Both the position numbers and the translations under genes were made by a program. DNA of 64,000 nt from the IMG/VR virus record IMGVR_UViG_3300025924_000017, positions 1 through 64,000 of that record. One strand, given 5' to 3'. Source of the stretch: a virus (taxonomy: Duplodnaviria; Caudoviricetes). Below, piece by piece: positions 49,791 to 63,812 of this stretch (its first letter is position 1; each line of letters begins with the position of its first letter). Under the pieces are notes generated by a model. That model ran no database searches and was not told where the DNA came from. It saw only the letters and a list, made by a program, of their open reading frames with translations.

Positions 49791-49791
49791 C

Positions 49792-49917: not shown

Positions 49918-49940
49918 TCCCACCGCCGTCCGGCACTTGC

Positions 49941-49967
49941 GTTAACTGTTCGCGGCGATTGGTAAAC
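49941..49967. repeat. 27-bp palindrome
   Basis: GTTAACTGTT-N7-ATTGGTAAAC. Confidence 0.8.
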
Positions 49968-50128
49968 GCGGGCGAACCGCCGGGCTCAGTCCTCCGGGTA
50001 TGTGGTGGCGCGCGCCGCCTTGTCCCACGAGTAGACATGGAACGCGCGATCAGTTGGGAGAATGAGCCTCATCAACTGGTAAGAGGCCTCAAGATCAATC
50101 GCGCGGGCCAATGCTTCGTATAGGGCTT

Positions 50129-50479
50129 TCATGCGGCGGCGCGCGCCTCGCGTACGACCTCAGCCCATAACGCCTTGCACTCGGCGCGATGCTTCGCCGC
50201 CGCCCCGGGCGTGAACTGGGATTCGAAACTGTCACAGCCCTTCATGAGTTTCCCCAACTGATTGTTGAGCGCGATGGACTCAAAAAGCCCGGTGGTTTTG
50301 TCGCCCGCATTGCGCATGCGGCCCGTGTAGACGATCCAGAGGAAGTCCACGCCCTCAGTTTTGTCATAGGCCGCTTGCCACGCTTCGGGCGTGCCAGCCT
50401 TCACGGCTTCCATGTGGAAGTGTGCGATGGTTTCCGCCAGCACACCCTCACCCAGCAAAAAATCGGCGTGGGACTTCAT
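50129..50479 (-). CDS. hypothetical protein
   Basis: ATGA overlap. Confidence 0.65.
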   Translation of the reverse strand: MKSHADFLLGEGVLAETIAHFHMEAVKAGTPEAWQAAYDKTEGVDFLWIVYTGRMRNAGDKTTGLFESIALNNQLGKLMKGCDSFESQFTPGAAAKHRAECKALWAEVVREARAAA

Positions 50480-50649
50480 GCGGCGGCCTTGTCATACTGG
50501 ATTTTGACGCCGAGACCCTTCGCCTCCCGGTACCACACCGGGTAGATCGAGACCGCTCCCCACGGTTTTGTCTCCGTGACCCAGTAGGTCCACTTCAAGC
50601 GCTCGCTCGGCAACCGCCGATAAGCACGCACCAGAAATTCCGATTTCAT
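50476..50649 (-). CDS. hypothetical protein
   Basis: GGAGTCGCAAATG start. Confidence 0.7.
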   Translation of the reverse strand: MKSEFLVRAYRRLPSERLKWTYWVTETKPWGAVSIYPVWYREAKGLGVKIQYDKAAA

Positions 50650-50679
50650 TTGCGACTCCGTGTGTGTTGTTGTGCCGGT

Positions 50680-50740
50680 CTTATCGCATAAAAGATTTTG
50701 TCCGTCAAGTGTTGACATTCACAAAGCGCCCGGCTATAAC
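50680..50740. promoter_or_regulatory. back-to-back sigma70 promoter pair
   Basis: CGTCAA-GTG-TTGACA; -10 GATAAG (-) and TATAAC (+). Confidence 0.8.
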
Positions 50741-50774
50741 CACGCCACAACAACGAACCAACACGGAGTCGCAA

Positions 50775-51281
50775 GTGAATCACGAACTCAGGATCAAATA
50801 CGGCACTAGCCGCGCCGCCAATACCTACGGTTACGGGCTTGTGAGCCTGTACGACGGCGGTAAGAAAGTCGCGGCCTGCAACGGCGGCGGTTACGACATG
50901 CGCGGGACGGTGTTCGGCGAATGGCTCGAAAAGACCTATCAGGAACGCCTCGTCGCGCTGGCGAAGGCAACCAAGGGCGCATTTGCGCGCGCCAACTGGA
51001 ACGGCGAACTGGGTGACGAGTCGAATTACGTCCGCCTCCCCGCTGATCGCAAGGTCGAGCTTTACGGCGGCACCTATTACGAGAACGGCAGCCGCGAGAG
51101 CGTTCACGGCCGCAAGGGTGCCCAGAAATACATCGCCAAGCCGCCGCATGTGACGTTGGATGGCGGTTGCGGGTTCGAGTCGATTTACCGGATCGCCAAG
51201 GCCATCGGCCTCAACGTCCGCACGGTTGACGCTGGGAAGAAACTCGACATCCTCCTGATCGAGGACACGAAACCCGGGTAA
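50775..51281 (+). CDS. conserved phage early protein
   Basis: GGAGTCGCAAGTG start; CNGGGYDMRGTVFG..LDGGCG. Confidence 0.75.
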   Translation: MNHELRIKYGTSRAANTYGYGLVSLYDGGKKVAACNGGGYDMRGTVFGEWLEKTYQERLVALAKATKGAFARANWNGELGDESNYVRLPADRKVELYGGTYYENGSRESVHGRKGAQKYIAKPPHVTLDGGCGFESIYRIAKAIGLNVRTVDAGKKLDILLIEDTKPG

Positions 51282-51368
51282 CAGTTGCGTCACGCCTGCG
51301 CCCTGCGTTCCCAAGACGCGCAGGCTTGACACTCCGGCGGATGCGCCCGCGAAGCCATCCGCAAGCCT

Positions 51369-51408
51369 GCCCCGGCGCTGGATCACTCCGGCGTCGGGGC
51401 TCTTTTTT
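51369..51408 (+). terminator. intrinsic terminator
   Basis: 14-bp stem with G-U pairs, then TCTTTTTT. Confidence 0.75.
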
Positions 51409-51416
51409 CTTGGGAT

Positions 51417-51443
51417 GTTAACCAGTCGCGTCGATTGGTAAAC
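51417..51443. repeat. 27-bp palindrome
   Basis: GTTAACCAGT-N7-ATTGGTAAAC. Confidence 0.85.
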
Positions 51444-51462
51444 GCGGGTGGCGCGGGCGCGC

Positions 51463-51846
51463 TCAGGTGATCTCGCGCCCGGTGTCGGCACACACGACCG
51501 GCTCATCTTCCTCCGCCATGCAACCGAGCGCCACGACGCGCCAGCCATCGCGCAGATTGAGCCGGACGGCTTCGAGCACGTCGCGCAGGTGTGCGCGGAC
51601 CGCCTCATAGCTCAATATCTCGCCGTCCGAGGTCATGAAGAAACACTCATAGCCGCCGGGCCAAGCGAACTTGCCCGCGCGCAGGGCCGACTTGACCTGC
51701 TGCATCCCTTTCAGGCCCAGAACGAAGTCGCGGCCGTGCACCGCGTAAGCCGCACGCAGCGGCGGCAGCTTGTTCCAGTCCGTGACCCGGGTGTCGTAGA
51801 GATCGCCGCCGGTCGCGACGAACAGGTGATCTGGCAGCTTGCTCAT
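51463..51846 (-). CDS. conserved phage early protein
   Basis: LRAGKFAWPGGY..FMTSDGE.LS motif. Confidence 0.7.
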   Translation of the reverse strand: MSKLPDHLFVATGGDLYDTRVTDWNKLPPLRAAYAVHGRDFVLGLKGMQQVKSALRAGKFAWPGGYECFFMTSDGEILSYEAVRAHLRDVLEAVRLNLRDGWRVVALGCMAEEDEPVVCADTGREIT

Positions 51847-52187
51847 AGCAGCACCGTGACCAGTGTCGGCGTGCGCGCTGAGTCCTCTTCCTTGCGGCTG
51901 TCGTAGGGCGTGCGGCCGAGCGCGAACGCCATGACGTCGAACTGTGGGCAATCGCGACCGCCGTTCTTGATGGTCCTGCCACTGTCATGGAAGCACACGT
52001 CCACGCAATCCGCCGGGCCGCCCTTGACATAGGGCTGGAACGCAAACGTCACGCGTTTGCCGTTGCTGAGCTTGGCGGTGATCGTATAGTTGCCATCCGG
52101 AACTTCCACGCACAGATGCGGGTTGGCGTTGAACCCGGCGAAACCCGCCGCGACCGCCTCGTCTTGGGATGCTTCCTTGAAATTCAT
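51843..52187 (-). CDS. hypothetical protein
   Basis: GGAGTCGCAAATG start. Confidence 0.72.
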   Translation of the reverse strand: MNFKEASQDEAVAAGFAGFNANPHLCVEVPDGNYTITAKLSNGKRVTFAFQPYVKGGPADCVDVCFHDSGRTIKNGGRDCPQFDVMAFALGRTPYDSRKEEDSARTPTLVTVLL

Positions 52188-52212
52188 TTGCGACTCCGTT
52201 TGTTGTGCGCCT

Positions 52213-52273
52213 CTTATAGCAGCAATTATTTTGTCCGTCAAGTGTTGACATTCAAAAATGTCCGGGCTATAAC
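52213..52273. promoter_or_regulatory. back-to-back sigma70 promoter pair
   Basis: ATTATTTTGTCCGTCAAGTGTTGACA; TATAAG (-), TATAAC (+). Confidence 0.85.
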
Positions 52274-52302
52274 GGCCGCAACAAACACAAACGGAGTCGC
52301 AA

Positions 52303-52731
52303 ATGGCAAAGCTTTCTGCAAACGGCCGCACGATTGTTGGCAGCATCGATTACATCGCCAGCACAAAGCGCGTCATGTCCGATGGCGTCATTCTGGAGAA
52401 CAAGGGCCACGGCTGGAAGGTCGCGGGCAAGGTGAAGCCGGGCTTCACACCCGAGCAGGCTTTCACGCAGGGCAAGGCCAAGCATGAAGCCACACTCGCC
52501 GCGCGTCCTGCGTTGGCGGCCTATCGCGCCGCCCTGCATGACGCCTGCGGGCTCGCCAAGCGCTGGGCGCTCCACACCGCGATCACCTTGATGCCGGACG
52601 ACCCGGATGGCGTGTGGTCGAACTGCGTGGACAGCTATCCCAAAGTCGATGCGGACCTCGATGACATCGTGAGGCTTTGCGGGCTCTACACCCGCGCCAA
52701 GGCAGAGAAGGAGGAGGCGGCGGTCGCGTAA
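52303..52731 (+). CDS. hypothetical protein
   Basis: GGAGTCGCAAATG start. Confidence 0.75.
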   Translation: MAKLSANGRTIVGSIDYIASTKRVMSDGVILENKGHGWKVAGKVKPGFTPEQAFTQGKAKHEATLAARPALAAYRAALHDACGLAKRWALHTAITLMPDDPDGVWSNCVDSYPKVDADLDDIVRLCGLYTRAKAEKEEAAVA

Positions 52732-52748
52732 GCGCCGCCAGCGCGCAC

Positions 52749-52775
52749 GTTTACCAATTGCGGAGATTGGTTACC
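52749..52775. repeat. 27-bp palindrome
   Basis: GTTTACCAAT-N7-ATTGGTTACC. Confidence 0.85.
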
Positions 52776-52817
52776 GCGCGGTATGCGGGCGCGGGGCTCC
52801 AAGCCGCGCCGGTTTGG

Positions 52818-53234
52818 TCAACAATCCGGATCGAAGTCGTGCCACTCCTGCACCTCGTCGGGCTGGCCGTCGTGCTCGTATTCGCCTTCGCCCTCCGGGG
52901 CCAGTAGGGTGGCATCCTGTTCCGGGTCCACGCCAATCTCATGATCGACCGGAAAGCCGCATGAGAAGCCGGACTCGAAGTCCACGCGGATGCAGTGTGC
53001 GCCCTCGTACTCGACTTTCTCGACGGTCTCGAACTCGAACTGGAATTCGGGATGCTCGCTCTTCAGTTGCGGGCTCTCCTCCTTGTTCTCGCACGCGTCG
53101 AAATAAGCTTCGTCGGCGAACCGATCCGCTTCAAGGTCGCAACGCTGGCCGACGCGCAACTGATTCACCCGGCACTTGACGACGCCTTGCCGCTCGACCG
53201 TGTTGACCGTGTTCGATCCGTCGCCCCGGCTCAT
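52818..53234 (-). CDS. acidic hypothetical protein
   Basis: ATGA overlap; ends DGQPDEVQEWHDFDPDC. Confidence 0.7.
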   Translation of the reverse strand: MSRGDGSNTVNTVERQGVVKCRVNQLRVGQRCDLEADRFADEAYFDACENKEESPQLKSEHPEFQFEFETVEKVEYEGAHCIRVDFESGFSCGFPVDHEIGVDPEQDATLLAPEGEGEYEHDGQPDEVQEWHDFDPDC

Positions 53235-53491
53235 TGCACGACCTCCGACGCATCGACAAACACCCAATGGTGCGTTGCCTCAAAGCGAAACAGCGAACGC
53301 GGCTTTTCCGCCAGCGTGCGCAGGTCGCCCTCGGCGAGCATGTCCGGCGTGGCGGTGACCACAAGACACGGCCCCTGACCGCCCGGCACGGACTTGACCG
53401 GCGTTCCCGCCGGGATCGTGAGATCGTAGCCGAATTGCGGCGCGGAACTACCCGGCACCCAGCGCTTCGTGATCGTTTCCTTGATCTGCAT
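53231..53491 (-). CDS. hypothetical protein
   Basis: GGAGTCGCAAATG start. Confidence 0.72.
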   Translation of the reverse strand: MQIKETITKRWVPGSSAPQFGYDLTIPAGTPVKSVPGGQGPCLVVTATPDMLAEGDLRTLAEKPRSLFRFEATHHWVFVDASEVVQ

Positions 53492-53523
53492 TTGCGACTC
53501 CGTTTTTCGTTTTCAGTGACGCC

Positions 53524-53584
53524 CTTATAGCCGAAAGAAATTTGTCCGTCAAGTGTTGACAATTCAAAATCGTTCGGCTATATC
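53524..53584. promoter_or_regulatory. back-to-back sigma70 promoter pair
   Basis: CGTCAA-GTG-TTGACA; TATAAG (-), TATATC (+). Confidence 0.8.
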
Positions 53585-53590
53585 TATGCA

Positions 53591-53714
53591 CGACACGGGG
53601 ATGGGGCCGTACGGTAAGCCCCTGCGGCGCGGAAGACGCCAAGGCCCCCGGTGCTGGTCCCACGGAAAGACCAACGGCAAGGGGTTCACCGGCCCCGCGC
53701 CCAAAAGATTGAAC
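53591..53714 (+). ncRNA. structured 5' leader, riboswitch-like candidate
   Basis: About 130-nt leader versus about 25 nt in sibling units; nested stems GGGGCCG/CGGCCCC and TGGTC/GACCA. Confidence 0.45.
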
Positions 53715-53724
53715 GGAGTCGCAA

Positions 53725-53967
53725 ATGAGCATTTCCCTGAATACCAACCTCACCGACGCGGGCGTCGTTTGCACTTTCGCCGACACCGGCGAATATGCAG
53801 GCATCGTGCGCTCCTCGATCACCAAAGGCGGCGGGATTGAGTGGCTGGCTTGCCCGGCCTTCGGCTTCGGCGTGAACCAGTTGTTCAGCGATCTGATAGC
53901 CGCCGAGTACCTGATCCTCGCATGGGCCATCGAAGCCCGCGCGAAGTCGCTGAGCGTGGCGGGCTGA
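53725..53967 (+). CDS. hypothetical protein
   Basis: GGAGTCGCAAATG start. Confidence 0.7.
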   Translation: MSISLNTNLTDAGVVCTFADTGEYAGIVRSSITKGGGIEWLACPAFGFGVNQLFSDLIAAEYLILAWAIEARAKSLSVAG

Positions 53968-53968
53968 T

Positions 53969-54160
53969 ATGGGCACGTGGCTGGACGACCTCAAGAAGAC
54001 CGATCCGGCACTCGCCGCCGACTGGGCGATTGTCGGCAACCAGAGCAGGGCTTCGCTGCGCAACATGGTCCGCGCGCTCGAAATCATGCCGCGCCTGAAT
54101 ACCGACGAGGACAACAAGCGGCTCGCCGCCGCTAAGCGCATCCTCAAGGCTAAGAGCTAA
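53969..54160 (+). CDS. conserved small phage protein
   Basis: IVGNQ..LRNMVRAL..LNTDEDNKRL.AA. Confidence 0.7.
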   Translation: MGTWLDDLKKTDPALAADWAIVGNQSRASLRNMVRALEIMPRLNTDEDNKRLAAAKRILKAKS

Positions 54161-54243
54161 CCGCCCGCGACGGCCAAGCGGGCAACCGGGACTTGTGGCG
54201 CGGTGCAGCACCGATCCGCGCCTGCCCGGCAGCTTACCCACAC

Positions 54244-54270
54244 GTTTACCAATTGCCGCTATTGGTTACC
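54244..54270. repeat. 27-bp palindrome
   Basis: GTTTACCAAT-N7-ATTGGTTACC. Confidence 0.85.
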
Positions 54271-54284
54271 GGCCCGTGAACGCC

Positions 54285-54509
54285 TCACACGTTCGCGGAG
54301 TCGTCGAACGCGTGAGGGTTGACGTGCGACGGATCGACCGACGCATGAAAGACGACCGTGTCGCCCGGCATGATCTCAGCGACCGCGCGCGCATCGTAGC
54401 GGCGGTGGATGAAGTCCGGCGCACCGAACACACGGCGCGCCGCCTCAAAGTGGGCGTCCTTGCCCTGATCGGGATGCACGACGCCGATGAAATGAACCGC
54501 GCTCTTCAT
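54285..54509 (-). CDS. conserved small phage protein
   Basis: Likely start MKSAVHFIG..ARRVFGAPDFIHR.YD.RA..DTVVF. Confidence 0.65.
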   Translation of the reverse strand: MKSAVHFIGVVHPDQGKDAHFEAARRVFGAPDFIHRRYDARAVAEIMPGDTVVFHASVDPSHVNPHAFDDSANV

Positions 54510-54733
54510 GCTGCTTTCTCCCGTAATTGCATCAACAGGCGTTGCGCCACACGCATCTCGCGGCCGTGACGATACGCGCCCGGAACGGTGGTGCATTCGT
54601 CGTCTAGGGCGGCGCTTGCCGCTTTCAGGGCTTCAGCGCCGAACTCTTTGAGAATGGAGTCCAGCGCGGCATCTCTGGCTTGGATGCACTCACCTGCTTC
54701 GCGTATCGCCTTGTCGCTCCAATCGTGACTCAT
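54506..54733 (-). CDS. hypothetical protein
   Basis: AGG RBS, overlap chain. Confidence 0.6.
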   Translation of the reverse strand: MSHDWSDKAIREAGECIQARDAALDSILKEFGAEALKAASAALDDECTTVPGAYRHGREMRVAQRLLMQLREKAA

Positions 54734-54734
54734 C

Positions 54735-54947
54735 CTAGTTCACCCGGATGGTTTCGACGTACGCGGCGATCTTGTCGCCAAGCACCGCATCCGTGATCGC
54801 CGGGTCAGCCGCGATGGCAGCCTCGCCGACGCGAAAGATTTTGGGAATGTCCATGATGCCGATCTGGACACCGCCGCACCGCGCGTTATAGGCGCGGTCG
54901 ATGCGGGCCTCGTTGATCTTTTCCTGCTTCGACTGTCTCTTGGGCAT
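54735..54947 (-). CDS. hypothetical protein
   Basis: GGAGTCGCAAATG start. Confidence 0.72.
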
Positions 54948-54983
54948 TTGCGACTCCGTTGTGGTTTGTTTGATTGTGACGCT

Positions 54984-55044
54984 GTTCTAGCATGGATTAT
55001 TTTGTCCGTCAAGTGTTGACATTCACAAAACGACCGGCTATAAC
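54984..55044. promoter_or_regulatory. back-to-back sigma70 promoter pair
   Basis: 26-mer identical to 52225-52250; TAGAAC (-), TATAAC (+). Confidence 0.85.
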
Positions 55045-55068
55045 AGCAGCACAACAACGGAGTCGCAA

Positions 55069-55308
55069 ATGAACCCTGAAGTGGATTTTGATTTTCACCA
55101 GAGCTTTTCGCTCACGATGGTCTACTGCATGAACCCGAACGCCTTGGCGCATATGCAGGAGCACACCGGCGACGAAGCCCAGTGGATGGGCGACGGCATC
55201 GCCGTCGAGAACCGCTATGCACCGGACCTGAGCGCCGAACTTTGCCGCGCAGGCTTCACGGTCGGACTGCCGGACGGTCGCGTCGTGACGGCGGAGGACC
55301 TGCGCTAA
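55069..55308 (+). CDS. hypothetical protein
   Basis: GGAGTCGCAAATG start. Confidence 0.72.
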   Translation: MNPEVDFDFHQSFSLTMVYCMNPNALAHMQEHTGDEAQWMGDGIAVENRYAPDLSAELCRAGFTVGLPDGRVVTAEDLR

Positions 55309-55784
55309 TGAACGAGCGCATCGAATTCGTGCGGGCCTACATCGCCGTGCAATGCACCGCGCCGGACGGCACGACCGGGGACTTTCTGTTCCGGAAGAAT
55401 GACAAGGGCGAGCGTGAACTGATCTCGCCCGTGTTCGCGGACCTGTCACCGCTGCATGACTGGCTGGAAATGAACGGTTGGGAACAGGAATCGTTTGACT
55501 CGCTGCATCCTGTTGGCGTGTTCCGCCGCGATCCGGATTACTGGTATCACAACAGCAACGAACTCCAGTGCGAGCGCATTTTCCGGACGGACGGCGGCAT
55601 CGTGAAATTGGACCACGGCGTCCCCGGCGATGGCACGCGGTGGCGTGTCGCGGACTGGACCGGCAAGAAGTTCGAGCACGATACGGGCTGGGCCTATTAC
55701 GAGAACACGATAGAGCCTTGCGATCTGATCGACCGTTTGCCAGACGATTGGGACAAGAAACAGCCTCGCAAAACGGCAGGCTGA
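55308..55784 (+). CDS. hypothetical protein (possibly two domains)
   Basis: GGAGG RBS, TAATG coupling. Confidence 0.7.
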   Translation: MNERIEFVRAYIAVQCTAPDGTTGDFLFRKNDKGERELISPVFADLSPLHDWLEMNGWEQESFDSLHPVGVFRRDPDYWYHNSNELQCERIFRTDGGIVKLDHGVPGDGTRWRVADWTGKKFEHDTGWAYYENTIEPCDLIDRLPDDWDKKQPRKTAG

Positions 55785-55823
55785 GGCGACCGGCGCGGGA
55801 GATTGCGACTCTCCCCGCGCCGT
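55785..55823 (+). terminator. GC-rich hairpin with TTGCGAC loop
   Basis: 39 bp identical to 56976-57014; follows the stop codon. Confidence 0.65.
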
Positions 55824-55835
55824 GTTCGCGACCGC

Positions 55836-55862
55836 CTTAACCAATTGCGGCGACTGGTTAAT
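55836..55862. repeat. 27-bp palindrome
   Basis: CTTAACCAAT-N7-ACTGGTTAAT. Confidence 0.8.
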
Positions 55863-55972
55863 ACGAGGCTGGAAACAGACGGCGGATCGCAAGTCCGGAT
55901 GCGCCCCGGAAGTTCCGGGCTGGTGGGCTGTCTCCCACGAGGTGCACCTTACAACCGCCGTCTCAACTGATG
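55863..55972 (-). ncRNA. candidate multi-branched small RNA
   Basis: Own leftward promoter, no RBS or ORF; 9-bp closing stem 55877-55885/55955-55963 enclosing three hairpins. Confidence 0.5.
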
Positions 55973-55977
55973 CACAC

Positions 55978-56038
55978 ACCCTAGCGCAGGAAAGCTTTAT
56001 TGTCAACCCTTGACAGACGAAATAATCCCCGCTATAAG
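55978..56038. promoter_or_regulatory. back-to-back sigma70 promoter pair, inverted orientation
   Basis: 56001-56026 is the reverse complement of 49014-49039 (25/26). Confidence 0.8.
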
Positions 56039-56063
56039 AGCGCCACAACCAACGGAGTCGCAA

Positions 56064-56756
56064 ATGTCCGAACACATCGCACACACCGAGCACGACGAGG
56101 AAACCGGCGTCACGCTCAAAATCATCAACGATCCGCATGGCAGCGAGTCGCCCCTCGAACACGATAGCGCGGTGATCTTCGCGGTCCTGCACCGGCGGTA
56201 CATCAACCCGGCGAAAGACGCGGCTGCGTACAAGCGCAACGGCGACTCTTACGACTTCACCACGGTCGAAGGCATTGCGGAATTCGAGAAGGCGAACGGC
56301 GCGATCAACGCGCAGTGGGCCGTGTTCCCGTTGTTCATGTACGATCATTCGGGCACGATCTACAGCGCCAGTTCCGGAGCCAATCCGTTCCACTGTCCAT
56401 GGGACTCGGGCCGCGTCGGTATTATCGCGCTTAAGAAGAGCGAAGTCGGTAAGCCCGGCAAGAAAGTCCGCAACGCCAAGCGCGAAGTGGTCTACACCGT
56501 AGGCAGCTATCTGGAACAGGCGCAAGCCGTCGCCAAGAACTACACCGACTGGGCCAACGGCAACATTTGGGGCTATGTGGTCGAAGACGCGGACGGCGAG
56601 CACATCGACTCGTGTTGGGGCTTCATCGGCGATCACGACGACGAACACCTGATGGCAGAAGCCCACAGCGCCTATCACGACGCGATCAAGGACGCGAACG
56701 CGGCGAACGCCCGCGACCTCGAAGCCGACCGCGCCGATATGTATGCGGGGGCGTGA
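56064..56756 (+). CDS. conserved phage early protein
   Basis: PLFMYDHSG..CPWDSGRVG..W.NG.IWGY..DSCWGFIG; GGAGTCGCAAATG start. Confidence 0.78.
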   Translation: MSEHIAHTEHDEETGVTLKIINDPHGSESPLEHDSAVIFAVLHRRYINPAKDAAAYKRNGDSYDFTTVEGIAEFEKANGAINAQWAVFPLFMYDHSGTIYSASSGANPFHCPWDSGRVGIIALKKSEVGKPGKKVRNAKREVVYTVGSYLEQAQAVAKNYTDWANGNIWGYVVEDADGEHIDSCWGFIGDHDDEHLMAEAHSAYHDAIKDANAANARDLEADRADMYAGA

Positions 56757-56965
56757 TGGCGAAGCCACGGCGGCAGACGCTATGGAGCTACACGGTCGCG
56801 GCGACGGGCCAGACTATCGAGCCCGTCAACCTCTACCTGCTTCCCGGCGTGCGCTACGCCCTGCGCGCGCTTCACGGCGCGGACGGCTTCAGCGAGCGCC
56901 TCTTAGGTCAAGGCCGCCTCATGAGTGACGGCACTGTGACCGACCTGATACCGCCGCCGGGTTGA
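56756..56965 (+). CDS. hypothetical protein
   Basis: TGATG coupling. Confidence 0.6.
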   Translation: MAKPRRQTLWSYTVAATGQTIEPVNLYLLPGVRYALRALHGADGFSERLLGQGRLMSDGTVTDLIPPPG

Positions 56966-56975
56966 CCGGCGACGT

Positions 56976-57014
56976 GGCGACCGGCGCGGGAGATTGCGAC
57001 TCTCCCCGCGCCGT
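56976..57014 (+). terminator. GC-rich hairpin with TTGCGAC loop
   Basis: Identical to 55785-55823. Confidence 0.65.
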
Positions 57015-57028
57015 TTCGCTTAAGAGGC

Positions 57029-57055
57029 CTTAACCAATTGGCGTGATCGGTTAAC
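57029..57055. repeat. 27-bp palindrome
   Basis: CTTAACCAAT-N7-ATCGGTTAAC. Confidence 0.8.
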
Positions 57056-57056
57056 G

Positions 57057-57117
57057 TTGATAGCGCGGATTATTTTGTCCGTCAAGTGTTGACAATCAAA
57101 AATCTCTGTGCGATAAG
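57057..57117. promoter_or_regulatory. back-to-back promoter pair; left arm has no gene
   Basis: 26-mer identical to 52225-52250. Confidence 0.8.
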
Positions 57118-57141
57118 ACGCCCACAAACACGGAGTCGCAA

Positions 57142-57375
57142 ATGAAGCCGATCACGAGAATAGCAACGTTCGACGGAAAAGAGCACCGCGATGCACTCGC
57201 AGCAGAGCGCCACCTAGACGAGGAATTCGGTCGGCGCGTGTCGGCGCTCGGTCACAAGTTCGCGCCTGCGGGTGTGAAGTACAGCGAGTTCCACAAGCTG
57301 GTCGAGGAGAACCTGCACGTGTTCGCAGAGCTTCTCCGGATCAAGGCCGACTTGAAAATCGAGGAGGAGGATTGA
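57142..57375 (+). CDS. hypothetical protein
   Basis: GGAGTCGCAAATG start. Confidence 0.72.
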   Translation: MKPITRIATFDGKEHRDALAAERHLDEEFGRRVSALGHKFAPAGVKYSEFHKLVEENLHVFAELLRIKADLKIEEED

Positions 57376-57588
57376 ATGGCGCACGAATGGAAGCGCTGCG
57401 GACTCCTGCGGTTTGACTCCGGGGTCCGCACGGTGTGGAAAAGACCGCGCGATGATCGAGAATCGGGGTTTGTGTTCCAGTCCACACGCAACCCCGATAT
57501 TGAACCCGCCCCCGGCTGCGGCGGGTATTACGACGCGCACGGCATGGCGAGGTCCGCCGGTGGGCGGTTGGAATTGACAGAGGATTGA
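57376..57588 (+). CDS. hypothetical protein
   Basis: GGAGG RBS. Confidence 0.6.
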   Translation: MAHEWKRCGLLRFDSGVRTVWKRPRDDRESGFVFQSTRNPDIEPAPGCGGYYDAHGMARSAGGRLELTED

Positions 57589-57603
57589 GGGCCGATCAGG
57601 TCC

Positions 57604-57640
57604 CGCGCCCGCCGCCGATTGCGACCCGGCGGCGGGCGCG
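57604..57640 (+). terminator. perfect 14-bp hairpin with ATTGCGACC loop
   Basis: CGCGCCCGCCGCCG / CGGCGGCGGGCGCG. Confidence 0.65.
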
Positions 57641-57654
57641 TTTGCGTTGGTCGC

Positions 57655-57681
57655 GTTAACCAGTCACCGCAATTGGTAAAC
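57655..57681. repeat. 27-bp palindrome
   Basis: GTTAACCAGT-N7-ATTGGTAAAC. Confidence 0.85.
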
Positions 57682-57693
57682 GCGCGCGCCGCC

Positions 57694-57840
57694 CTACCTC
57701 GGCGCGATCTCACCCAGCCGCTTGAGCCAGCCCTGCGTGTTGAACCACGCGCACACGGTTGGCATGAACCAAAGGCGCGAGCTTTGGCCGCTGTTCTGAA
57801 ATGCGGCTTCCCACATGATCGCCTGACCGAGGTGCTTCAT
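57694..57840 (-). CDS. hypothetical protein (48 aa)
   Basis: ATGA overlap; hand translation MKHLGQAIMW.. Confidence 0.5.
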   Translation of the reverse strand: MKHLGQAIMWEAAFQNSGQSSRLWFMPTVCAWFNTQGWLKRLGEIAPR

Positions 57841-58175
57841 GCAACCACCCCGGCCAGAATTCCATCCGCCAGCGCCGCACGCTTTGCGCGCATCGTGTGC
57901 GCCGGATCGTGGTCCGAAATGTAGGCCGCGAAGTAGCGCTCGTCGAACTTGAAAAAGCCAAGCCGCACGTCGGCCGTGGTCGCCTCGCAGATGGCGAAGC
58001 CCACGCTCGTGTAGTGCATCGGCGGCAGCATTTCGAGAAAGTACCAGTAGGTTTCCTCGTCTACTTCCACAAACCCGGCGAGCAGCCGGGCGCGGTCGAA
58101 GCGCTGGGCATGCGGAAGCTCCGGATTGAGCCAGCCGTAAAACCCGTCCTTATCGAATTTGCCTTCGAACTTCAT
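57837..58175 (-). CDS. DUF1419-like protein
   Basis: EVDEETYWYFLEMLPP..FAICE; GGAGTCGCAAATG start. Confidence 0.65.
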   Translation of the reverse strand: MKFEGKFDKDGFYGWLNPELPHAQRFDRARLLAGFVEVDEETYWYFLEMLPPMHYTSVGFAICEATTADVRLGFFKFDERYFAAYISDHDPAHTMRAKRAALADGILAGVVA

Positions 58176-58201
58176 TTGCGACTCCGTTTGTTTGCAGGCA
58201 C

Positions 58202-58263
58202 CTTATCGCATAAAACATTTTGTCTGTCAACAGTTGACAATTCAAATTCTGCCGTGCTATAGA
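58202..58263. promoter_or_regulatory. back-to-back sigma70 promoter pair
   Basis: TGTCAA-CAG-TTGACA 58225-58239. Confidence 0.78.
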
Positions 58264-58291
58264 GGCGGCACAAACAGAAACGGAGTCGCAA

Positions 58292-58684
58292 ATGAAGTAT
58301 GCAGTCAATGAACAAGGGCAGGTCACCTGCGACGGCGAGCCTATGCTCGTACTCGCGCAGGCCGTTTGGGGCGATGGTGCGCCGAGCGCCGCCGCCCGGG
58401 ATGTTGCCCAGCAGCGCGCCAAAGACGCTTTCAAGGCGCTGGAGTTGATCGAACGCCTCGCCCGCATGGGTTTTTACGCCTACCCGGACGGCGAAAGCTT
58501 TTCCGACGCGCAGGCCGAAGACGCGCTGGTCGTGCTCAACCAGATGATCGAGAACGCGCGCAAGCTTGCCCCGGATGCAGTCCCCGGCCCATATATCACG
58601 ACCGGGCACGACCTCGACGGCGACGGGCCTTGGTATGCGCCGGGCATCGGCGAAGTCGAAGCCCCGCAGGAGGATCAGCCATGA
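58292..58684 (+). CDS. hypothetical protein
   Basis: GGAGTCGCAAATG start. Confidence 0.72.
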   Translation: MKYAVNEQGQVTCDGEPMLVLAQAVWGDGAPSAAARDVAQQRAKDAFKALELIERLARMGFYAYPDGESFSDAQAEDALVVLNQMIENARKLAPDAVPGPYITTGHDLDGDGPWYAPGIGEVEAPQEDQP

Positions 58685-58749
58685 TCTAGCACGACGGCGA
58701 AGTCCTCGACCTCGGTTTGCGTTCCACAGCGGAACGCCGACCGGGCTGA
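58681..58749 (+). pseudogene. relic paralog of 59271..59429
   Basis: ATG ATC TAG CAC GAC GGC GAA GTC CTC versus ATG CCC TAC CAT GAC GGC GAA GTC CTC. Confidence 0.55.
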
Positions 58750-58753
58750 GGCC

Positions 58754-58780
58754 CTTAACCAATTACCGCAACCGGTTAAC
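58754..58780. repeat. 27-bp palindrome
   Basis: CTTAACCAAT-N7-ACCGGTTAAC. Confidence 0.8.
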
Positions 58781-58829
58781 GCCCGCGACGAGAGAGGGCA
58801 GCGCGGCCTTACGACCGCGCTGGACCTCC

Positions 58830-58994
58830 TCACTCCATTTCCTCTGCCCCATCCTGCACCGTGTGCGCGGTAATGTCGTAACGCTCTAGTTGCGCGTTCA
58901 CGGCATCCATTGCAGCACCGACGCCGGTCTCTGCTTCGCTCCTTGAGTCCGCCGCGATCACGAACGCGACCGTAACAATGAACTGTTTTCCCAT
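58830..58994 (-). CDS. hypothetical protein (54 aa)
   Basis: GGAGTCGCAAATG start; hand translation MGKQFIVTV.. Confidence 0.68.
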   Translation of the reverse strand: MGKQFIVTVAFVIAADSRSEAETGVGAAMDAVNAQLERYDITAHTVQDGAEEME

Positions 58995-59026
58995 TTGCGA
59001 CTCCGTTGTTTGTTTTCAGTACGGTT

Positions 59027-59088
59027 GGTATAGCACGACGGATTCTAAAATGTCAACACTTGACGGACAGAATAATTTGTGCGATAAG
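59027..59088. promoter_or_regulatory. back-to-back promoter pair, inverted orientation
   Basis: 59051-59076 is the reverse complement of 52225-52250 (25/26). Confidence 0.8.
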
Positions 59089-59116
59089 GTTCGCACAACA
59101 ACCAACGGAGTCGCAA

Positions 59117-59284
59117 ATGAAGTATGATTTTCGGACAGCCGACAACGCCGCTAAGCCCCACGTCGCTGTTGTGGAAGTGGAGAGCGGCGAGACGGCTGCA
59201 ATTGTCTACATCAAAGACGGGAAAGTTGATGACGCTGAACGTCTGGCCGAGCTTTGCGTGGGGGTGTTCAATGCCCTACCATGA
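59117..59284 (+). CDS. hypothetical protein
   Basis: GGAGTCGCAAATG start. Confidence 0.7.
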   Translation: MKYDFRTADNAAKPHVAVVEVESGETAAIVYIKDGKVDDAERLAELCVGVFNALP

Positions 59285-59429
59285 CGGCGAAGTCCTCGGC
59301 CTCGACGCTGACGGTTGTGTGATCCAGTGGGACGCCGACCGGGGCGCGGCCTACAATTCCGGCGAGACGCTGGAAGAGTTCGGCGCGGACAATCTGCGCG
59401 CCCACGAACGCGGGAGGCTGGGCCTATGA
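59271..59429 (+). CDS. small acidic protein
   Basis: MPYHDGEVLG.. Confidence 0.6.
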   Translation: MPYHDGEVLGLDADGCVIQWDADRGAAYNSGETLEEFGADNLRAHERGRLGL

Positions 59430-59632
59430 GCAGTTGGATTTATCGCGTCGAGCTAAACGCACGCAAGGCCGGGGACATCGGCACGTTCACGCGCTGCACG
59501 TTCGATGTTATCGCCGAGCAGGCGCGCGGCGCGGATGGAGCGTACACCCGGGCCATCGCAAAGGCCACCGCGCACGGCTACGAAACACGCGGCGCAAATA
59601 GCGCTGTGCGTATGAGCGAGGTACACGCATGA
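59426..59632 (+). CDS. hypothetical protein
   Basis: GGAGG RBS, ATGA overlap. Confidence 0.62.
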   Translation: MSSWIYRVELNARKAGDIGTFTRCTFDVIAEQARGADGAYTRAIAKATAHGYETRGANSAVRMSEVHA

Positions 59633-59805
59633 GCGAAGACGCGATCAGCGGCAAAGACATCCGCGAGTTCCGGCTCTACTTGAAGCAATGCACCGACCGG
59701 CAGGTTGAGGGCGTGTTCGAGCGTGAGAAGGCCGCAGGCCGGGAGACGTATATGGAACTTGCCCGCGCCGAGGCCGAGCACCGGGGCATTACCATCTGGG
59801 GCTGA
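59629..59805 (+). CDS. hypothetical protein
   Basis: GAGG RBS, ATGA overlap. Confidence 0.58.
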   Translation: MSEDAISGKDIREFRLYLKQCTDRQVEGVFEREKAAGRETYMELARAEAEHRGITIWG

Positions 59806-59907
59806 CCACCATGTCATAAAATCCCCCAACTGTGACATGCCGAGTCAACGATTCCAACAGCTTAGGCCCTGCCTGTCACGTTTCACGAAACCTAGGAAAG
59901 GAAACCC

Positions 59908-60048
59908 ATGCATTCAGGCCATCACCGCCACCACGGCGGACATCATGGCGGGCACCACCTCGGCGCGCTCGCCTTCCTCGCCCTGCTTCCCGGCTATCGC
60001 TTCTTTTTGATGCTCGCCTTAGTCGTGGTCCTGTGCGGCGGCACCTGA
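59908..60048 (+). CDS. His-rich small membrane protein, paralog 2
   Basis: AAGGA RBS; MHSGHHRHHGGHHGGHH..PGYRFFLM..CGGT. Confidence 0.68.
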   Translation: MHSGHHRHHGGHHGGHHLGALAFLALLPGYRFFLMLALVVVLCGGT

Positions 60049-60093
60049 TACTGTCATTCAAGGGTTGACAATTGACCCCGGCCGTGCGATAAG
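60045..60093 (+). promoter_or_regulatory. sigma70-type promoter
   Basis: TTGACA 60065-60070; GC-GATAAG. Confidence 0.7.
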
Positions 60094-60141
60094 CCTTGCA
60101 ACGTCGGGATGACCCGGCGACAATCCAAACCGGAGTCGCAA

Positions 60142-60738
60142 ATGGCAAAAGAACAGTTCGCATTGCTCGCCGTGAATGAAACGGACAATTGGGACCAGTC
60201 CATTCTGGACAAGCACGGCTTTGAAGCCGCGTTCGGCGTCTACTTGATCCGCCTCGGCGAGGCCACGCATTGTTGCAGCCTCACCGCGTCAACGTGGGCC
60301 GAGTTTTACGAGAACGCCTTCATTTACGATCACGAAGACGCGGCGGCCGACAAAGCGGCGGAAGACCTCGCCCACGAGAACGGCGGCGAGTTCGGGCGCT
60401 ATCTCACCTACGTCGATCCTGACCAGAAGAGCCGCTACCTCGGCGCGGCGATCACGGTCGAAGTGGACGCGGATGAATTCGAAGGCGGCAAGAAATCCGA
60501 CGCCTATCACGAGGCAATCTGGACGGAAGCCCGCGAGGCCGCAGCCACCGGCGCGATCAGCGAACCGGCGATCCTGTGGAGCGAGGAATACTACGCCCAG
60601 CAGGAAGAGTACGCCGCCAAGCGACGCGCAGAGAACCGCAGGCCCTTGGCGCGCCCGATCCTGCCGTTGTTCTTCGCCGCCGCCCAGCGCGACGGATTCG
60701 CCACGTACGAAGGCGCAATCGAGCACGGCTGGCTTTGA
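60142..60738 (+). CDS. acidic hypothetical protein
   Basis: GGAGTCGCAAATG start. Confidence 0.75.
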   Translation: MAKEQFALLAVNETDNWDQSILDKHGFEAAFGVYLIRLGEATHCCSLTASTWAEFYENAFIYDHEDAAADKAAEDLAHENGGEFGRYLTYVDPDQKSRYLGAAITVEVDADEFEGGKKSDAYHEAIWTEAREAAATGAISEPAILWSEEYYAQQEEYAAKRRAENRRPLARPILPLFFAAAQRDGFATYEGAIEHGWL

Positions 60739-60824
60739 TCCTGCGCGTGCCCTGCCACGGGCCACGCAGTACACCGGCCCGGCGCTGCCTGTCACGGCAC
60801 GCCGGGCCGGAGCATTTTGGGCGC

Positions 60825-60873
60825 ATTATTTTGTCCTAAAGGTGTTGACAATTGGATTCCGCCCGGCTATAAC
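60825..60873 (+). promoter_or_regulatory. sigma70-type promoter with no conventional gene downstream
   Basis: ATTATTTTGTCC; TTGACA 60845-60850; GC-TATAAC. Confidence 0.75.
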
Positions 60874-61001
60874 ACCGCCATGCCTCGCGGCGACAGAGCA
60901 GGACCTCTGGAAGGCGCGGCGCGAAGTCCTCCCGGGAAAGCCCGCCAGACGCGGGATCGCAGGGAGGCCGGGACACGCGGACCCGCCGATCTGCGCCGAG
61001 C

Positions 61002-61076
61002 CTACCTTGCGCGATATCGTGCGCTACCGTGCGCACTACCTTGCGCGCTACCGTTCGCTGGCACGATCTGGGGCGC
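61002..61076 (+). repeat. CTACC tandem cluster
   Basis: 5 units; 61024-61076 matches 62233-62285 at 50/53. Confidence 0.8.
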
Positions 61077-61103
61077 GCGCCGTCCGGCGCGGCCTGTGCC
61101 CGC

Positions 61104-61174
61104 GTTTACCAGTTGGAAGGATTGGTTAACGCCGCCTCGGAGTCCGCGTTAACCAATTGCGGCTATTGGTTAAG
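61104..61174. repeat. two 27-bp palindromes
   Basis: Copies at 61104 and 61148. Confidence 0.85.
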
Positions 61175-61238
61175 ACCATCGCAAATTTTGTTAACCATAG
61201 GGCGTGCCGATCTGGCACGCCCACGATCTGCCGCGTGG

Positions 61239-61691
61239 CTAGGCGCTCTCCTCCTTTCGAGCCTTGACGCGCACGTAGGGCTTCTCCTCGTAGTGATCGA
61301 TCTTCTCGCCGGAGGGAAGGTCCCACGGCATGAGCATGAAGGTCACGCCAAAGGGATGGAATTCCGCGTTCTGGGGCGACAGGTTTTCAGCCTTCATGTA
61401 ACTGGCGATGTACCAGTCGCGCGCGTCACCCTCGAACGTGAAGCAGGTCTTGTTGGAGCGCAGACGATACGCAGGCAACGCGCCCACCAGATAGATGGCA
61501 TGATCCGTATAGGTGTCACCAGCCTTGAACTGCCCACGGCGCACGCCGTCCATCTCTGCCGTGTAGGTGTTCGTGCGATCATACTCCGCACCTTCGTAAG
61601 TCACACCACTGATCGTGACGGACACGGGCTTGATGTTGGAGAGATGGCCGAGGGATGCGAGGTAGGCCACGACGTTTGCGGAAACAGACAT
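61239..61691 (-). CDS. hypothetical protein
   Basis: GGAGTCGCAAATG start. Confidence 0.75.
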   Translation of the reverse strand: MSVSANVVAYLASLGHLSNIKPVSVTISGVTYEGAEYDRTNTYTAEMDGVRRGQFKAGDTYTDHAIYLVGALPAYRLRSNKTCFTFEGDARDWYIASYMKAENLSPQNAEFHPFGVTFMLMPWDLPSGEKIDHYEEKPYVRVKARKEESA

Positions 61692-61715
61692 TTGCGACTC
61701 CGTTGTTGTGCGCAC

Positions 61716-61776
61716 TTTATGGCATGCCTTGTTTTGTCTGTCAAGGGTTGACATATAGAATTCTTCGCGCTATAAC
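61716..61776. promoter_or_regulatory. back-to-back sigma70 promoter pair
   Basis: TGTCAA-GGG-TTGACA 61739-61753; CATAAA (-), TATAAC (+). Confidence 0.8.
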
Positions 61777-61802
61777 GGCAGCACAAACAAACGGAGTCGC
61801 AA

Positions 61803-62198
61803 ATGATCTCACACGCAGACGTTCTCAAAATCGACCGCGCCATCTCCGGCAAGCTGGTCGAGCTTGCCATCGCCAAAGGCTACAGCCTGACCGTCCGCAC
61901 GAACGACGACGACGCGCACAACGTCATCAAGTCGCGCGATCCGAAGGTGATCCTCGACGAACTTCATTCCGTGGACGACGAGCGCCTCTATGTGCACGAT
62001 GCAAACGGAAAGCGCCTCGGCTGGATTTACTTCGTGTTCGGCGAATCCGGCTGGGACGTGATCTGCGATCACACCACAGGCCGGGCGATCACGGAACTGG
62101 TGGACACAGGCCCGATCAAGGCGATCTCGGATGGTATCTGCGAGAACCCGGAGAACTGGAGCGCGATACTCGCGCAGAACGGCGCGGCAGTCGGCTGA
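61803..62198 (+). CDS. conserved phage early protein
   Basis: GGAGTCGCAAATG start; GYSLTV..DDERLY..GWIYFVFG..DVICDH. Confidence 0.75.
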   Translation: MISHADVLKIDRAISGKLVELAIAKGYSLTVRTNDDDAHNVIKSRDPKVILDELHSVDDERLYVHDANGKRLGWIYFVFGESGWDVICDHTTGRAITELVDTGPIKAISDGICENPENWSAILAQNGAAVG

Positions 62199-62200
62199 GC

Positions 62201-62285
62201 CTACGGCGCGCTACCGTTCGCTGGCGCGCTTCCTACCGTGCGCGCTACCTTGCGCTCTACCGTTCGCTGGCGCGATCTGGGGCGC
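62201..62285 (+). repeat. CTACC tandem cluster
   Basis: Units at 62201, 62211, 62233, 62245, 62257. Confidence 0.8.
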
Positions 62286-62337
62286 TGGCGCGCGCCAGCC
62301 CGGCGGCGGCGGTATGGTTAACGAAAATCGCCCCGGC

Positions 62338-62364
62338 GTTAACCAATTCAGTGTATTGGTTAAC
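62338..62364. repeat. 27-bp palindrome
   Basis: GTTAACCAAT-N7-ATTGGTTAAC, perfect arms. Confidence 0.9.
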
Positions 62365-62412
62365 GCGCCGTTAACCACGTCGGCGCCCTGTCCCGATCTG
62401 GCACAAACGCGT

Positions 62413-62445
62413 CGAGGCGCAAGCGGCTGAGCCGCTTGCGCCTCG
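62413..62445. terminator. perfect 15-bp hairpin
   Basis: CGAGGCGCAAGCGGC-TGA-GCCGCTTGCGCCTCG. Confidence 0.6.
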
Positions 62446-62480
62446 CGTAGGGTTTGGAGTGCGGCGCCGCGCCGCGCGGA

Positions 62481-62693
62481 CTAGTGGGCCGTCATACTCG
62501 GATCGAGTCGGACGCGTTCCAGTGTAACGAGTGCGCCTGACTCGGACTCGGCGATGAGTGCCAAGCATTGCCCGGCCATGAGTGCGGCGCGCGCATGCTT
62601 GAAATTGTCGCGCGCGTCGCCCGCCGCGCTATCGCCCGTGAAAGGGGTTGTAACCCGCTCGCGTCCCTCAGAAAGTTCAACGTGATATTTCAT
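62481..62693 (-). CDS. hypothetical protein
   Basis: GGAGTCGCAAATG start. Confidence 0.7.
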   Translation of the reverse strand: MKYHVELSEGRERVTTPFTGDSAAGDARDNFKHARAALMAGQCLALIAESESGALVTLERVRLDPSMTAH

Positions 62694-62739
62694 TTGCGAC
62701 TCCGTTTGCCTGTCGCGCGACTATCGCCGCGACACGTGA

Positions 62740-62768
62740 AAGCTAAGCCCGGCATTGTCGCAAGTCAA
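62740..62768 (-). promoter_or_regulatory. sigma70-type promoter
   Basis: TTGACT-N17-TAGCTT on the - strand. Confidence 0.65.
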
Positions 62769-62856
62769 GGCATTAGAGTCGTAATTCGCGACATTCTTTC
62801 CAAGCGGTAAAAGCCCGCTCCCTTAACCCGGCATTATCCGACAATTGCGCACCACA

Positions 62857-62904
62857 ATTATTTTGTCTTTAGACCGTTGACAATTCAAACAAGGGGATTA
62901 GATT
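62857..62904 (+). promoter_or_regulatory. sigma70-type promoter
   Basis: ATTATTTTGTC; TTGACA 62877-62882; TAGATT. Confidence 0.7.
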
Positions 62905-62946
62905 GATGGTCACGGCGTTAGGCCGGAATGACAAACGGAGTCGCAA

Positions 62947-63078
62947 ATGAAAATCGCATTTTTCTCCATCGCCCTGTTTATCAGCTTTCAAGCTGGGGTT
63001 TCCTCGTATGTCGCGGACAAGGTTGGCGCGGAAATTACGCGCGACTTCGCGCCGCTCAATGCTATCTTCCAGCACTAA
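62947..63078 (+). CDS. small protein with hydrophobic or signal-like N-terminus
   Basis: GGAGTCGCAAATG start; MKIAFFSIALFISFQAG.. Confidence 0.62.
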   Translation: MKIAFFSIALFISFQAGVSSYVADKVGAEITRDFAPLNAIFQH

Positions 63079-63088
63079 GGGGGACACA

Positions 63089-63478
63089 ATGCGTAACGCT
63101 TATCTGACATTCCCGAATCAGTCGAATGACGGAATCTCCTTTACGAAACCTGAGGGACGATTCGGCAATCTCAAGGCGCGCCTTGAGAAAAGCCTTGTCC
63201 GCGCATTTGGCGGATTCACCGCAACCCGCGCGGATGGGGCTTGGCACGATGTCGAGACTGACATCGTGCATGCCGAGTCCGTGACGGTCTATAAAATCGC
63301 GGGCGATTGGAGCACGGAAAACGAGTCCAAGCTTCGCGGTATCGCGGCGCGCTATTGCGCACTCGGCGAGCAAATTTGCGTGCTGGTCGAATTCGCCAAC
63401 GGCGAGTCGGAATTCATTTCGCCGGAGGCTGATCTAGCTGCAACGCTTGGCAGCGCGCGCGCCTTGTTGGCGGCTTAG
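63089..63478 (+). CDS. hypothetical protein (DUF3574-like)
   Basis: AFGGFT..DGAW..ESVTV..YC..EQ.CV pattern. Confidence 0.6.
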   Translation: MRNAYLTFPNQSNDGISFTKPEGRFGNLKARLEKSLVRAFGGFTATRADGAWHDVETDIVHAESVTVYKIAGDWSTENESKLRGIAARYCALGEQICVLVEFANGESEFISPEADLAATLGSARALLAA

Positions 63479-63488
63479 TCGAAACCAA

Positions 63489-63513
63489 GGCGCGCCGCAT
63501 AGTGCGGCGCGCC
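63489..63513. terminator. perfect 11-bp hairpin
   Basis: GGCGCGCCGCA-TAG-TGCGGCGCGCC. Confidence 0.5.
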
Positions 63514-63533
63514 GCAACCCTACGGAGTCGCAA

Positions 63534-63677: not shown

Positions 63678-63719
63678 GCCCGCGTTAGTGTCCTGTTTAC
63701 CGAGTCGCGCATGCGGTAA

Positions 63720-63768: not shown

Positions 63769-63812
63769 TCGTGTGTCGCGGCGATTGTGTCGCGCAAATT
63801 TTGGAGTCGCAA

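Follow-up and report, generated by a model that had tools for sequence, protein, structure and literature searches.

Can a hairpin at the end of a small phage gene act back, through its loop, on the ribosome-binding leader of the same transcript? This question is raised by a DNA stretch of 64,000 nucleotides (nt), hereafter the window, which comprises bases 1–64000 of the 225,611-bp virus record IMGVR_UViG_3300025924_000017, a genome of 59% G+C. The large terminase shares 62% identity, in its C-terminal part, with those of Caulobacter phage phiCbK and relatives, and the phage is therefore regarded as a phiCbK-like giant siphophage. Directly after the terminase gene (terL), at about 46.5–64.7 kb in genome coordinates, lies an array of about 18 kb with around 25 small early-gene transcription modules, which continues about 0.7 kb beyond the window end. 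The modules are composed of a promoter (TTGACA-N16/17-GCTATAAC, which we take to be the housekeeping, sigma-70-type form described for Caulobacter), a short CA-rich leader, and an invariant start motif, (A)CGGAGTCGCAAATG, that includes the Shine–Dalgarno (SD) sequence. In four adjacent modules, the closing hairpin displays in its loop a short word exactly complementary to that motif. Most simply, these hairpins are the terminator or 3’-stabiliser stem-loops of four adjacent early modules. We tentatively propose, at somewhat less than an even chance, that their loops also pair with the SD sequence and spacer of the leader, damping translation or altering transcript stability.

Hairpins and Start Motif of Four Adjacent Modules

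The four hairpins, designated H1 to H4, and the start motifs of the modules that they close are located as follows.

54279–54320, minus strand: H4, the 3’ stem-loop of the module starting at 54947, with about 15 pairs and the loop ACGACUCCG
54945–54957, minus strand: start motif GGAGTCGCAAATG of the module (starting at 54947) closed by H4
55059–55071, plus strand: start motif of the module with genes 55069–55308 and 55308–55784, closed by H1
55785–55823, plus strand: H1, stem at 55791–55822, loop TTGCGAC at 55803–55809, starting 1 nt after the stop codon, tail TGTTCGCG
56054–56066, plus strand: start motif of the module with genes 56064–56756 and 56756–56965, closed by H2
56976–57014, plus strand: H2, an exact 39-nt copy of H1 in unrelated flanks, loop at 56994–57000, tail TTTCGCTT
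57132–57144, plus strand: start motif of the module with genes 57142–57375 and 57376–57588, closed by H3
57604–57640, plus strand: H3, loop ATTGCGACC on a perfect 14-bp G+C stem unrelated in sequence to that of H1 and H2, tail TTTGCGTT

The presumed pairing target, GGAGTCGCAAATG, is an asymmetric, invariant element of 13 nt that contains the SD sequence, lies immediately 5’ of the ATG, and fronts mostly unrelated small genes. It occurs in 22 exact copies in the window (48967–63815) and in 24 in the 225.6-kb genome, 23 of which are situated between 48.9 and 64.5 kb. Exact copies are also present in two related phages, namely L012 (identical to L239; 12 copies, G+C 60%, 72% amino-acid identity in TerL) and L327 (8 copies, G+C 51%, 66% identity in TerL), the former with the same promoters and the latter with the same promoter core and a complete 10-kb array captured. 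Since the motif is exact in three diverged phages before mostly unrelated cargo, it must be under strong selection. The leaders of phiCbK share a looser form, AAGGATCGCA, and the distant relatives L240 and L245 keep only GGAGTC followed by a variable spacer.

An earlier note on this DNA had described H1 and H2 as identical at 39 of 39 positions, which is confirmed with exact coordinates and sequences. This identity extends for 0 bases on either side and the flanks are unrelated; thus, the 39-nt unit is a discrete block set in unrelated surroundings. In H1 and H2, the loop UUGCGAC caps a G+C-rich stem of 12 bp from which a single C bulges, and in H3 the RNA loop is AUUGCGACC. The three folds have energies between -28 and -38 kcal/mol and z-scores between -2.7 and -2.8. 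The three loops carry the word (A)TTGCGAC, to which GTCGCAA of the start motif is complementary, and the complementarity claimed in the note holds to the letter, as TTGCGACTC is the reverse complement of GAGTCGCAA within GGAGTCGCAAATG. It was likewise right that the same loop sits on different stems, given that H3 and H1/H2 share the 9-mer GATTGCGAC (the anti-leader word) on stems of unrelated sequence.

H1, H2, and H3 close three tandem plus-strand modules at 1–17 nt from the last stop codons: the distance from these codons to the hairpin, taken as the 39-nt unit for H1 and H2 but as the stem alone for H3, is 1, 11, and 16 nt, and that to the stem is 7, 17, and 16 nt. All three thus show the layout of an intrinsic terminator, with a G+C-rich stem-loop placed right behind the last stop codon, and their tails (TGTTCGCG, TTTCGCTT, and TTTGCGTT) resemble the equally weak tails of the annotated terminators in the phiCbK terminal repeat. 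T-rich tails accompany H1–H3 on the plus strand only, which leaves unsupported the suggestion of the note that minus-strand read-through could display the motif as a decoy for a binding protein. A search of Rfam returned no family match.

H4 presents a different, overlapping part of the anti-leader sequence. In the minus-strand RNA, its loop reads ACGACUCCG, the complement of CGGAGUCG, a section of the start motif with the whole SD sequence in it, and this difference in the part displayed favours an anti-leader role over a fixed protein-binding loop. Moreover, the single non-Watson–Crick pair of its stem is G.U in the minus-strand RNA and C.A on the opposite strand, so that H4 points to RNA. 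The module of H4 shares a divergent promoter with that of H1 and, thus, H4, H1, H2, and H3 close four consecutive modules (54.28–57.64 kb). H4 runs across the stop codon and final 12 codons of a 74-amino-acid open reading frame (ORF), 54509→54285, in which the loop codes for a conserved Asp-Asp-Ser (DDS). Two homologues of this ORF on other contigs have the same DDS with AGT or AGC as the Ser codon and form no hairpin, which makes both the hairpin and the TCC codon specific to this phage. A fifth candidate just past the window end, at genome positions 64030–64066 in ORF 63813–64160, with the loop GACUCCG, is retained as doubtful only, since the word would be hidden by a competing 6-bp hairpin.

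Pairing Energy and Chance

The accessibility of both partners was estimated from partition-function folds of the whole predicted mRNAs, and the strength of the contact from loop-only duplexes. Opening the loops costs 0.0 kcal/mol (3.0 for H4) and opening the leader 1.6–5.5 kcal/mol, while the loop-only duplexes reach -8.9 kcal/mol for 7 nt and -13.1 kcal/mol for H4. The net energy of loop–leader pairing is thus -3 to -7 kcal/mol, comparable to the reference of -6.1 kcal/mol for SD:anti-SD pairing. An unrestricted duplexfold calculation chooses pairings that melt the stems, and its net energy is positive.

To place these hairpins among their neighbours, a survey was made around the AT-rich boundary palindrome GTTAACCAAT-N7-ATTGGTTAAC, which occurs in 18 copies, all at 46.5–63.7 kb (window 46558–63721) and in the array only. 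On each side of every palindrome, the most stable hairpin was taken in the sense of the transcript running towards the palindrome, and its loop with 2 nt on each side was scored by duplex energy against the leader and against 300 shuffled leaders. Hairpins were located with a stem-extension finder, as a brute-force RNAfold scan proved too noisy in G+C-rich DNA. The 24 palindrome sides gave 22 distinct junction hairpins, two sides having yielded a repeat. H1, H2, H3, and H4 reach -14.0 to -15.3 kcal/mol with the leader, values as good being obtained with none of the 300 shuffled leaders, whereas the remaining 18 reach only -1.5 to -8.1 kcal/mol. Strong pairing with the leader is thus confined to 4 of the 22 junction hairpins and does not characterise module ends in general. 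All four anti-leader loops are antisense in the transcript of their own module, and the four modules are adjacent.

How often such matches would arise by chance was assessed for array hairpins of at least 9 pairs and exact matches of at least 7 nt, with shuffled-motif and random-15-mer nulls. The probability that three or more distinct hairpins carry such a match is 0.002–0.016, and that four or more do is 0.0005–0.008. A conservative comparison of the array with the rest of the genome, based on duplex energy in either orientation, gives 4 of 30 hairpins against 2 of 154 (Fisher p = 0.007). We take the enrichment beyond chance to be real but not overwhelming, and the transcript-sense orientation and the adjacency of the cases add weight to it. 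On balance, the scales tip slightly towards the identity of the loops being something other than pure coincidence.

Weighing the Explanations

In the reading preferred here, a contact of the loops with the leader of their own mRNA, we infer that transcripts end at the hairpins, that pairing occurs in vivo, and that it has some effect. H4, H1, H2, and H3 would serve four consecutive early modules as 3’ stabilisers and leaky terminators of the intrinsic type, and each has in its loop a 7–9-nt anti-leader sequence. Within one and the same mRNA, the exposed loop would pair with the invariant SD/spacer motif at the 5’ end, CGGAGUCGCAA, and this 5’–3’ contact would compete with binding of the 30S subunit and perhaps create a target for an RNase. 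The outcome would be throttled translation or a changed half-life of these particular modules, in the manner of icaR (see below).

The main rival, which we consider quite possible though well short of an even chance, holds that these are ordinary terminator or 3’-protective hairpins and that the loop match is functionless, having arisen by duplication (H1 to H2), chance (H3), and coding constraint (H4). A series of observations weighs against pairing, and much of it speaks for this rival. Because H1 and H2 are related by duplication, there are only three independent stems, and Fisher p rises to 0.029 when the two count once; the two hairpins outside the array that reach the same energy do so by chance, and anti-leader 7-mers are about as frequent in the coding regions of the array as expected. 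The region is repeat-rich, and both the pattern and all the chance estimates are post hoc. The word in the loop of H4 is partly dictated by the conserved DDS codons, and most junction hairpins (18 of 22) lack the feature. A 7-nt loop cannot pair along its full length without strain, which lies outside the energy estimate, and a strict E. coli-style terminator scan, with a U-tract of at least 5 T in the 8 positions right after the stem, does not call H1–H3. Furthermore, the leader is identical in L012 and L327 while the anti-leader loops are not conserved there: in neither phage is the loop of any module-end hairpin antisense to the leader within the transcript that carries it, so that the conservation of the 3’ element expected of an icaR-type control is missing in both. 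In L012, the orthologue of gene 55308–55784 is followed by another small gene and promoter, with no hairpin. The earlier note had proposed to ask whether the loops vary in homologues, and the absence of anti-leader loops from both relatives goes part of the way towards refuting its idea; judging by these comparisons, the feature appears to be lineage-specific. Coincidence, for its part, has to accommodate the common 9-mer GATTGCGAC of H3 and H1, which is the anti-leader word on unrelated stems, the antisense orientation of every case within its own transcript, the adjacency of the four, the 7-mer-based nulls of 0.0005–0.002, and the restriction of the H4 hairpin and its TCC codon to this phage.

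Action in trans, as imagined in the earlier note, would make stable 3’ hairpin fragments into small RNAs that titrate the common leader of about 24 early mRNAs and shut down early translation. As 24 genes carry one and the same leader, each of them is in principle within reach of any accessible anti-leader loop, and the loops are fully accessible; moreover, C-rich hairpin loops of the S. aureus RNAIII, one of them in the terminator hairpin, pair with the SD sequences of its targets. Nevertheless, four sources would have to serve 24 targets, the net energy of -3 to -7 kcal/mol is modest, a chaperone site is not evident, and relatives with the same leader lack anti-leader loops, all of which make this version improbable. 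The same low confidence applies to its corollary, in which turnover of early mRNA would leave stable hairpin fragments that shut the whole array, doing with RNA alone what T4 RegA and similar repressors do as proteins. Similarly unlikely, in our estimation, is recognition of the loop word at the DNA or protein level, through single-stranded or cruciform display of GTCGCAA/TTGCGAC, through a phage or host factor reading the GANTC (CcrM) site in GACTC, or as a recombination signal for cassette shuffling. The start motif does contain GAGTC, distant relatives retain only GGAGTC, the phage encodes a GcrA homologue, GACTC is present in the loops of H1, H2, and H4 and of the doubtful hairpin at genome positions 64030–64066, and the 39-nt H1/H2 unit has moved as a discrete block. 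The motif-like words at 3’ ends in the relatives are sense-oriented (at 5764 in L012 and 8836 in L327), and only a strand-blind reading unites them with the loops described here. These cases are weak, however, being a 6-mer (L327 8836–8868, loop TGCGACA, the best of that phage, in sense orientation in the transcript of the preceding gene) and an unpaired stretch with a non-significant fold. Moreover, H3 has no GANTC, the G.U pair of H4 points to RNA, and we know of no factor that reads such loops.

Some further candidates were discarded. The GTCGCAA near the module end at 5764 in L012 does not qualify as a third stem, since it is unpaired, sense-oriented, and part of a fold no better than shuffles. 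The loops are unlikely to be eroded relics of reversed leaders, because similarity ends at the 7–9-nt core. Likewise, the loops have no connection with the TTGCGAC that ends a second promoter-like motif (see below), where this word is part of an inverted repeat, TGTCG-N7-CGACA.

The Array, Its Relatives and Known Analogues

Boundary palindromes follow the three plus-strand hairpins at short distances.

55837–55861: boundary palindrome TTAACCAAT-N7-ACTGGTTAA, 14 nt after H1
57030–57054: boundary palindrome after H2, with the -35 element of the next promoter about 36 nt later
57656–57680: reversed copy of the boundary palindrome, separating H3 from the end of a convergent minus-strand module

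This palindrome is conserved in L012 and L327, with its stems kept and its loops variable, which suggests that it is probably a protein-binding site. Its TTAAC half-sites lie 17 nt apart, in contrast to the CtrA box TTAA-N7-TTAA reported for phiCbK-like repeats. At 63697–63721, a variant palindrome (TTTACCG...CGGTAAA) holds GAGTCGCG in its loop in sense orientation, and a stranded copy of the leader, GAGTCGCAAA, is found nearby at 63631–63640, within the 3’ end of ORF 63534–63677. Every start motif holds a GANTC (CcrM) site fused to the SD sequence, and the density of GANTC is 4.4 per kb in the array and 2.2 per kb elsewhere; the GcrA homologue of the phage is encoded outside the window (genome 214470–214862, 57.9 bits). 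Divergent promoter pairs (54957–55059 and other divergent junctions) stand back to back with their -35 hexamers 3–4 nt apart (CGTCAA-GTG-TTGACA), which creates an inverted repeat at every divergent junction.

Clusters of a repeat of about 12 nt (CTACCGTGCGCG) at 47178–47423, 61012–61088, and 62221–62285 flank clusters of palindromes; L012 has the same repeat, and L245 the form CATACCGTGCGC. The promoter at 60832–60880 runs into one such cluster with no start motif downstream; thus, the cluster may mark a DNA site or encode a non-coding RNA. The second promoter-like class, TTGACAC-N3-TGTCGT-N3-TTGCGACA, is represented by about 10 copies outside the array (window 28407; genome 70795, 101045, 156888, 184462, and 207432 on the minus strand, among others), contains the TGTCG-N7-CGACA inverted repeat mentioned above, and may be a middle or late promoter with an operator. 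Upstream of terL, auxiliary genes encode a PAP2 phosphatase family protein (3846–4757), an RlaP nucleotidyltransferase of an RNA repair pathway (7610–8605), an R2K-clade ATP-grasp protein (22827–23696), and a BCS1-like AAA ATPase (28426–29691). The large terminase gene itself (43805–46540) is interrupted by an intein with Hint/Intein_splicing domains, as in phiCbK, and the large terminase of the relative P0007 (L327) is longer (1253 amino acids) and has a LAGLIDADG domain.

The relatives share regulatory parts of the array and differ in cargo. Exact-motif scans of viral contigs recovered one true relative, L012, and a motif scan of metagenomes gave, among the matches listed, only chance single matches. 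The array had no Megablast match in the plasmid and phage collections, none of the nine proteins of the hairpin block has a known function, and protein-based searches for relatives of the genes preceding H1 and H3 found none, while a 230-amino-acid protein has distant homologues in unrelated contexts. No loop in L240 or L245 tracks the leader of its own phage. The same phage is present in a second JGI sample (L326, a contig of 225,526 bp), which is uninformative because it is 99.99% identical, differing at 2 positions in 20 kb, of which one changes the ATG of the module at 58175 to GTG.

In bacteria, contacts between the two ends of an mRNA are known to control translation. The 3’ untranslated region (UTR) of icaR in S. 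aureus pairs with its own SD sequence, blocks initiation, and creates a substrate for RNase III (PMC3868564). In B. subtilis, anti-SD-like 8-mers located hundreds of nt downstream pair with the ribosome-binding site, cut translation, speed decay, and are depleted from genes (PMC12697547), and hbs shows a contact between its 5’ and 3’ UTRs (PMC5737220). The phage hairpins resemble these cases in that a short sequence at the 3’ end, here 7–9 nt of exact complement predicted to be accessible, matches the SD region of the same mRNA and is proposed to block initiation and alter decay. Unlike in icaR, the anti-leader sits in the apical loop of a terminal G+C hairpin rather than in a long 3’ UTR, its target is common to about 24 phage genes, and the 3’ feature is not conserved in relatives. 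Furthermore, the loops would address the SD sequence together with the spacer (GAGUCGCAA), whereas the icaR type employs UCCCC-type anti-SD sequences.

The start motif has a close analogue in the start-associated sequence (SAS) of Cluster K mycobacteriophages, which is likewise a 13-nt asymmetric element that contains the SD sequence, lies immediately before the ATG of non-structural genes only, and is conserved across related phages before unrelated genes (PMC3203893). The sequence (GGAGTCGCAAATG against GGGATAGGAGCCC), the host phylum, and the phage lineage differ, so that the likeness is one of analogy without homology, and GGAGTCGCAAATG is an SAS-like element in an alphaproteobacterial phage lineage. 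Rare reverse-oriented SAS copies not tied to gene starts have been reported, and complements in hairpin loops are not described (PMC3203893). The promoter-early stem-loop (PeSL) cassettes of T4-type phages offer another parallel, since they combine strong sigma-70-type early promoters with terminator stem-loops among small non-essential genes (PMC2839356). A sigma-70-like early promoter and a module-end stem-loop repeated between small ORFs are found in the array as well, and the 39-nt H1/H2 block recurs, like a PeSL, as a discrete regulatory unit in unrelated flanks, whereas the AT-rich boundary palindrome and the invariant leader are additions of the array. No complementarity of PeSL loops to a common leader has been reported (PMC2839356). 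Finally, the array occupies the same place as the early terminal-repeat region of phiCbK and resembles such regions in phiCbK-like phages in lying directly after an intein-containing terL and in its small genes and predicted rho-independent terminators; the published work on these phages describes CtrA boxes and terminal repeats, and neither an invariant start motif nor anti-leader loops (PMC3556154, PMC9437464).

Should the pairing be real, the array would hold a compact means of controlling individual early genes, or the whole early class, with no regulator gene needed, in which an anti-ribosome-site sequence is written into the loop of a terminator. It would also offer a way into the function of SAS-like start motifs, a question standing since 2011. 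Should it not be real, these hairpins show how a repeat-rich cassette array can yield convincing-looking complementarities.

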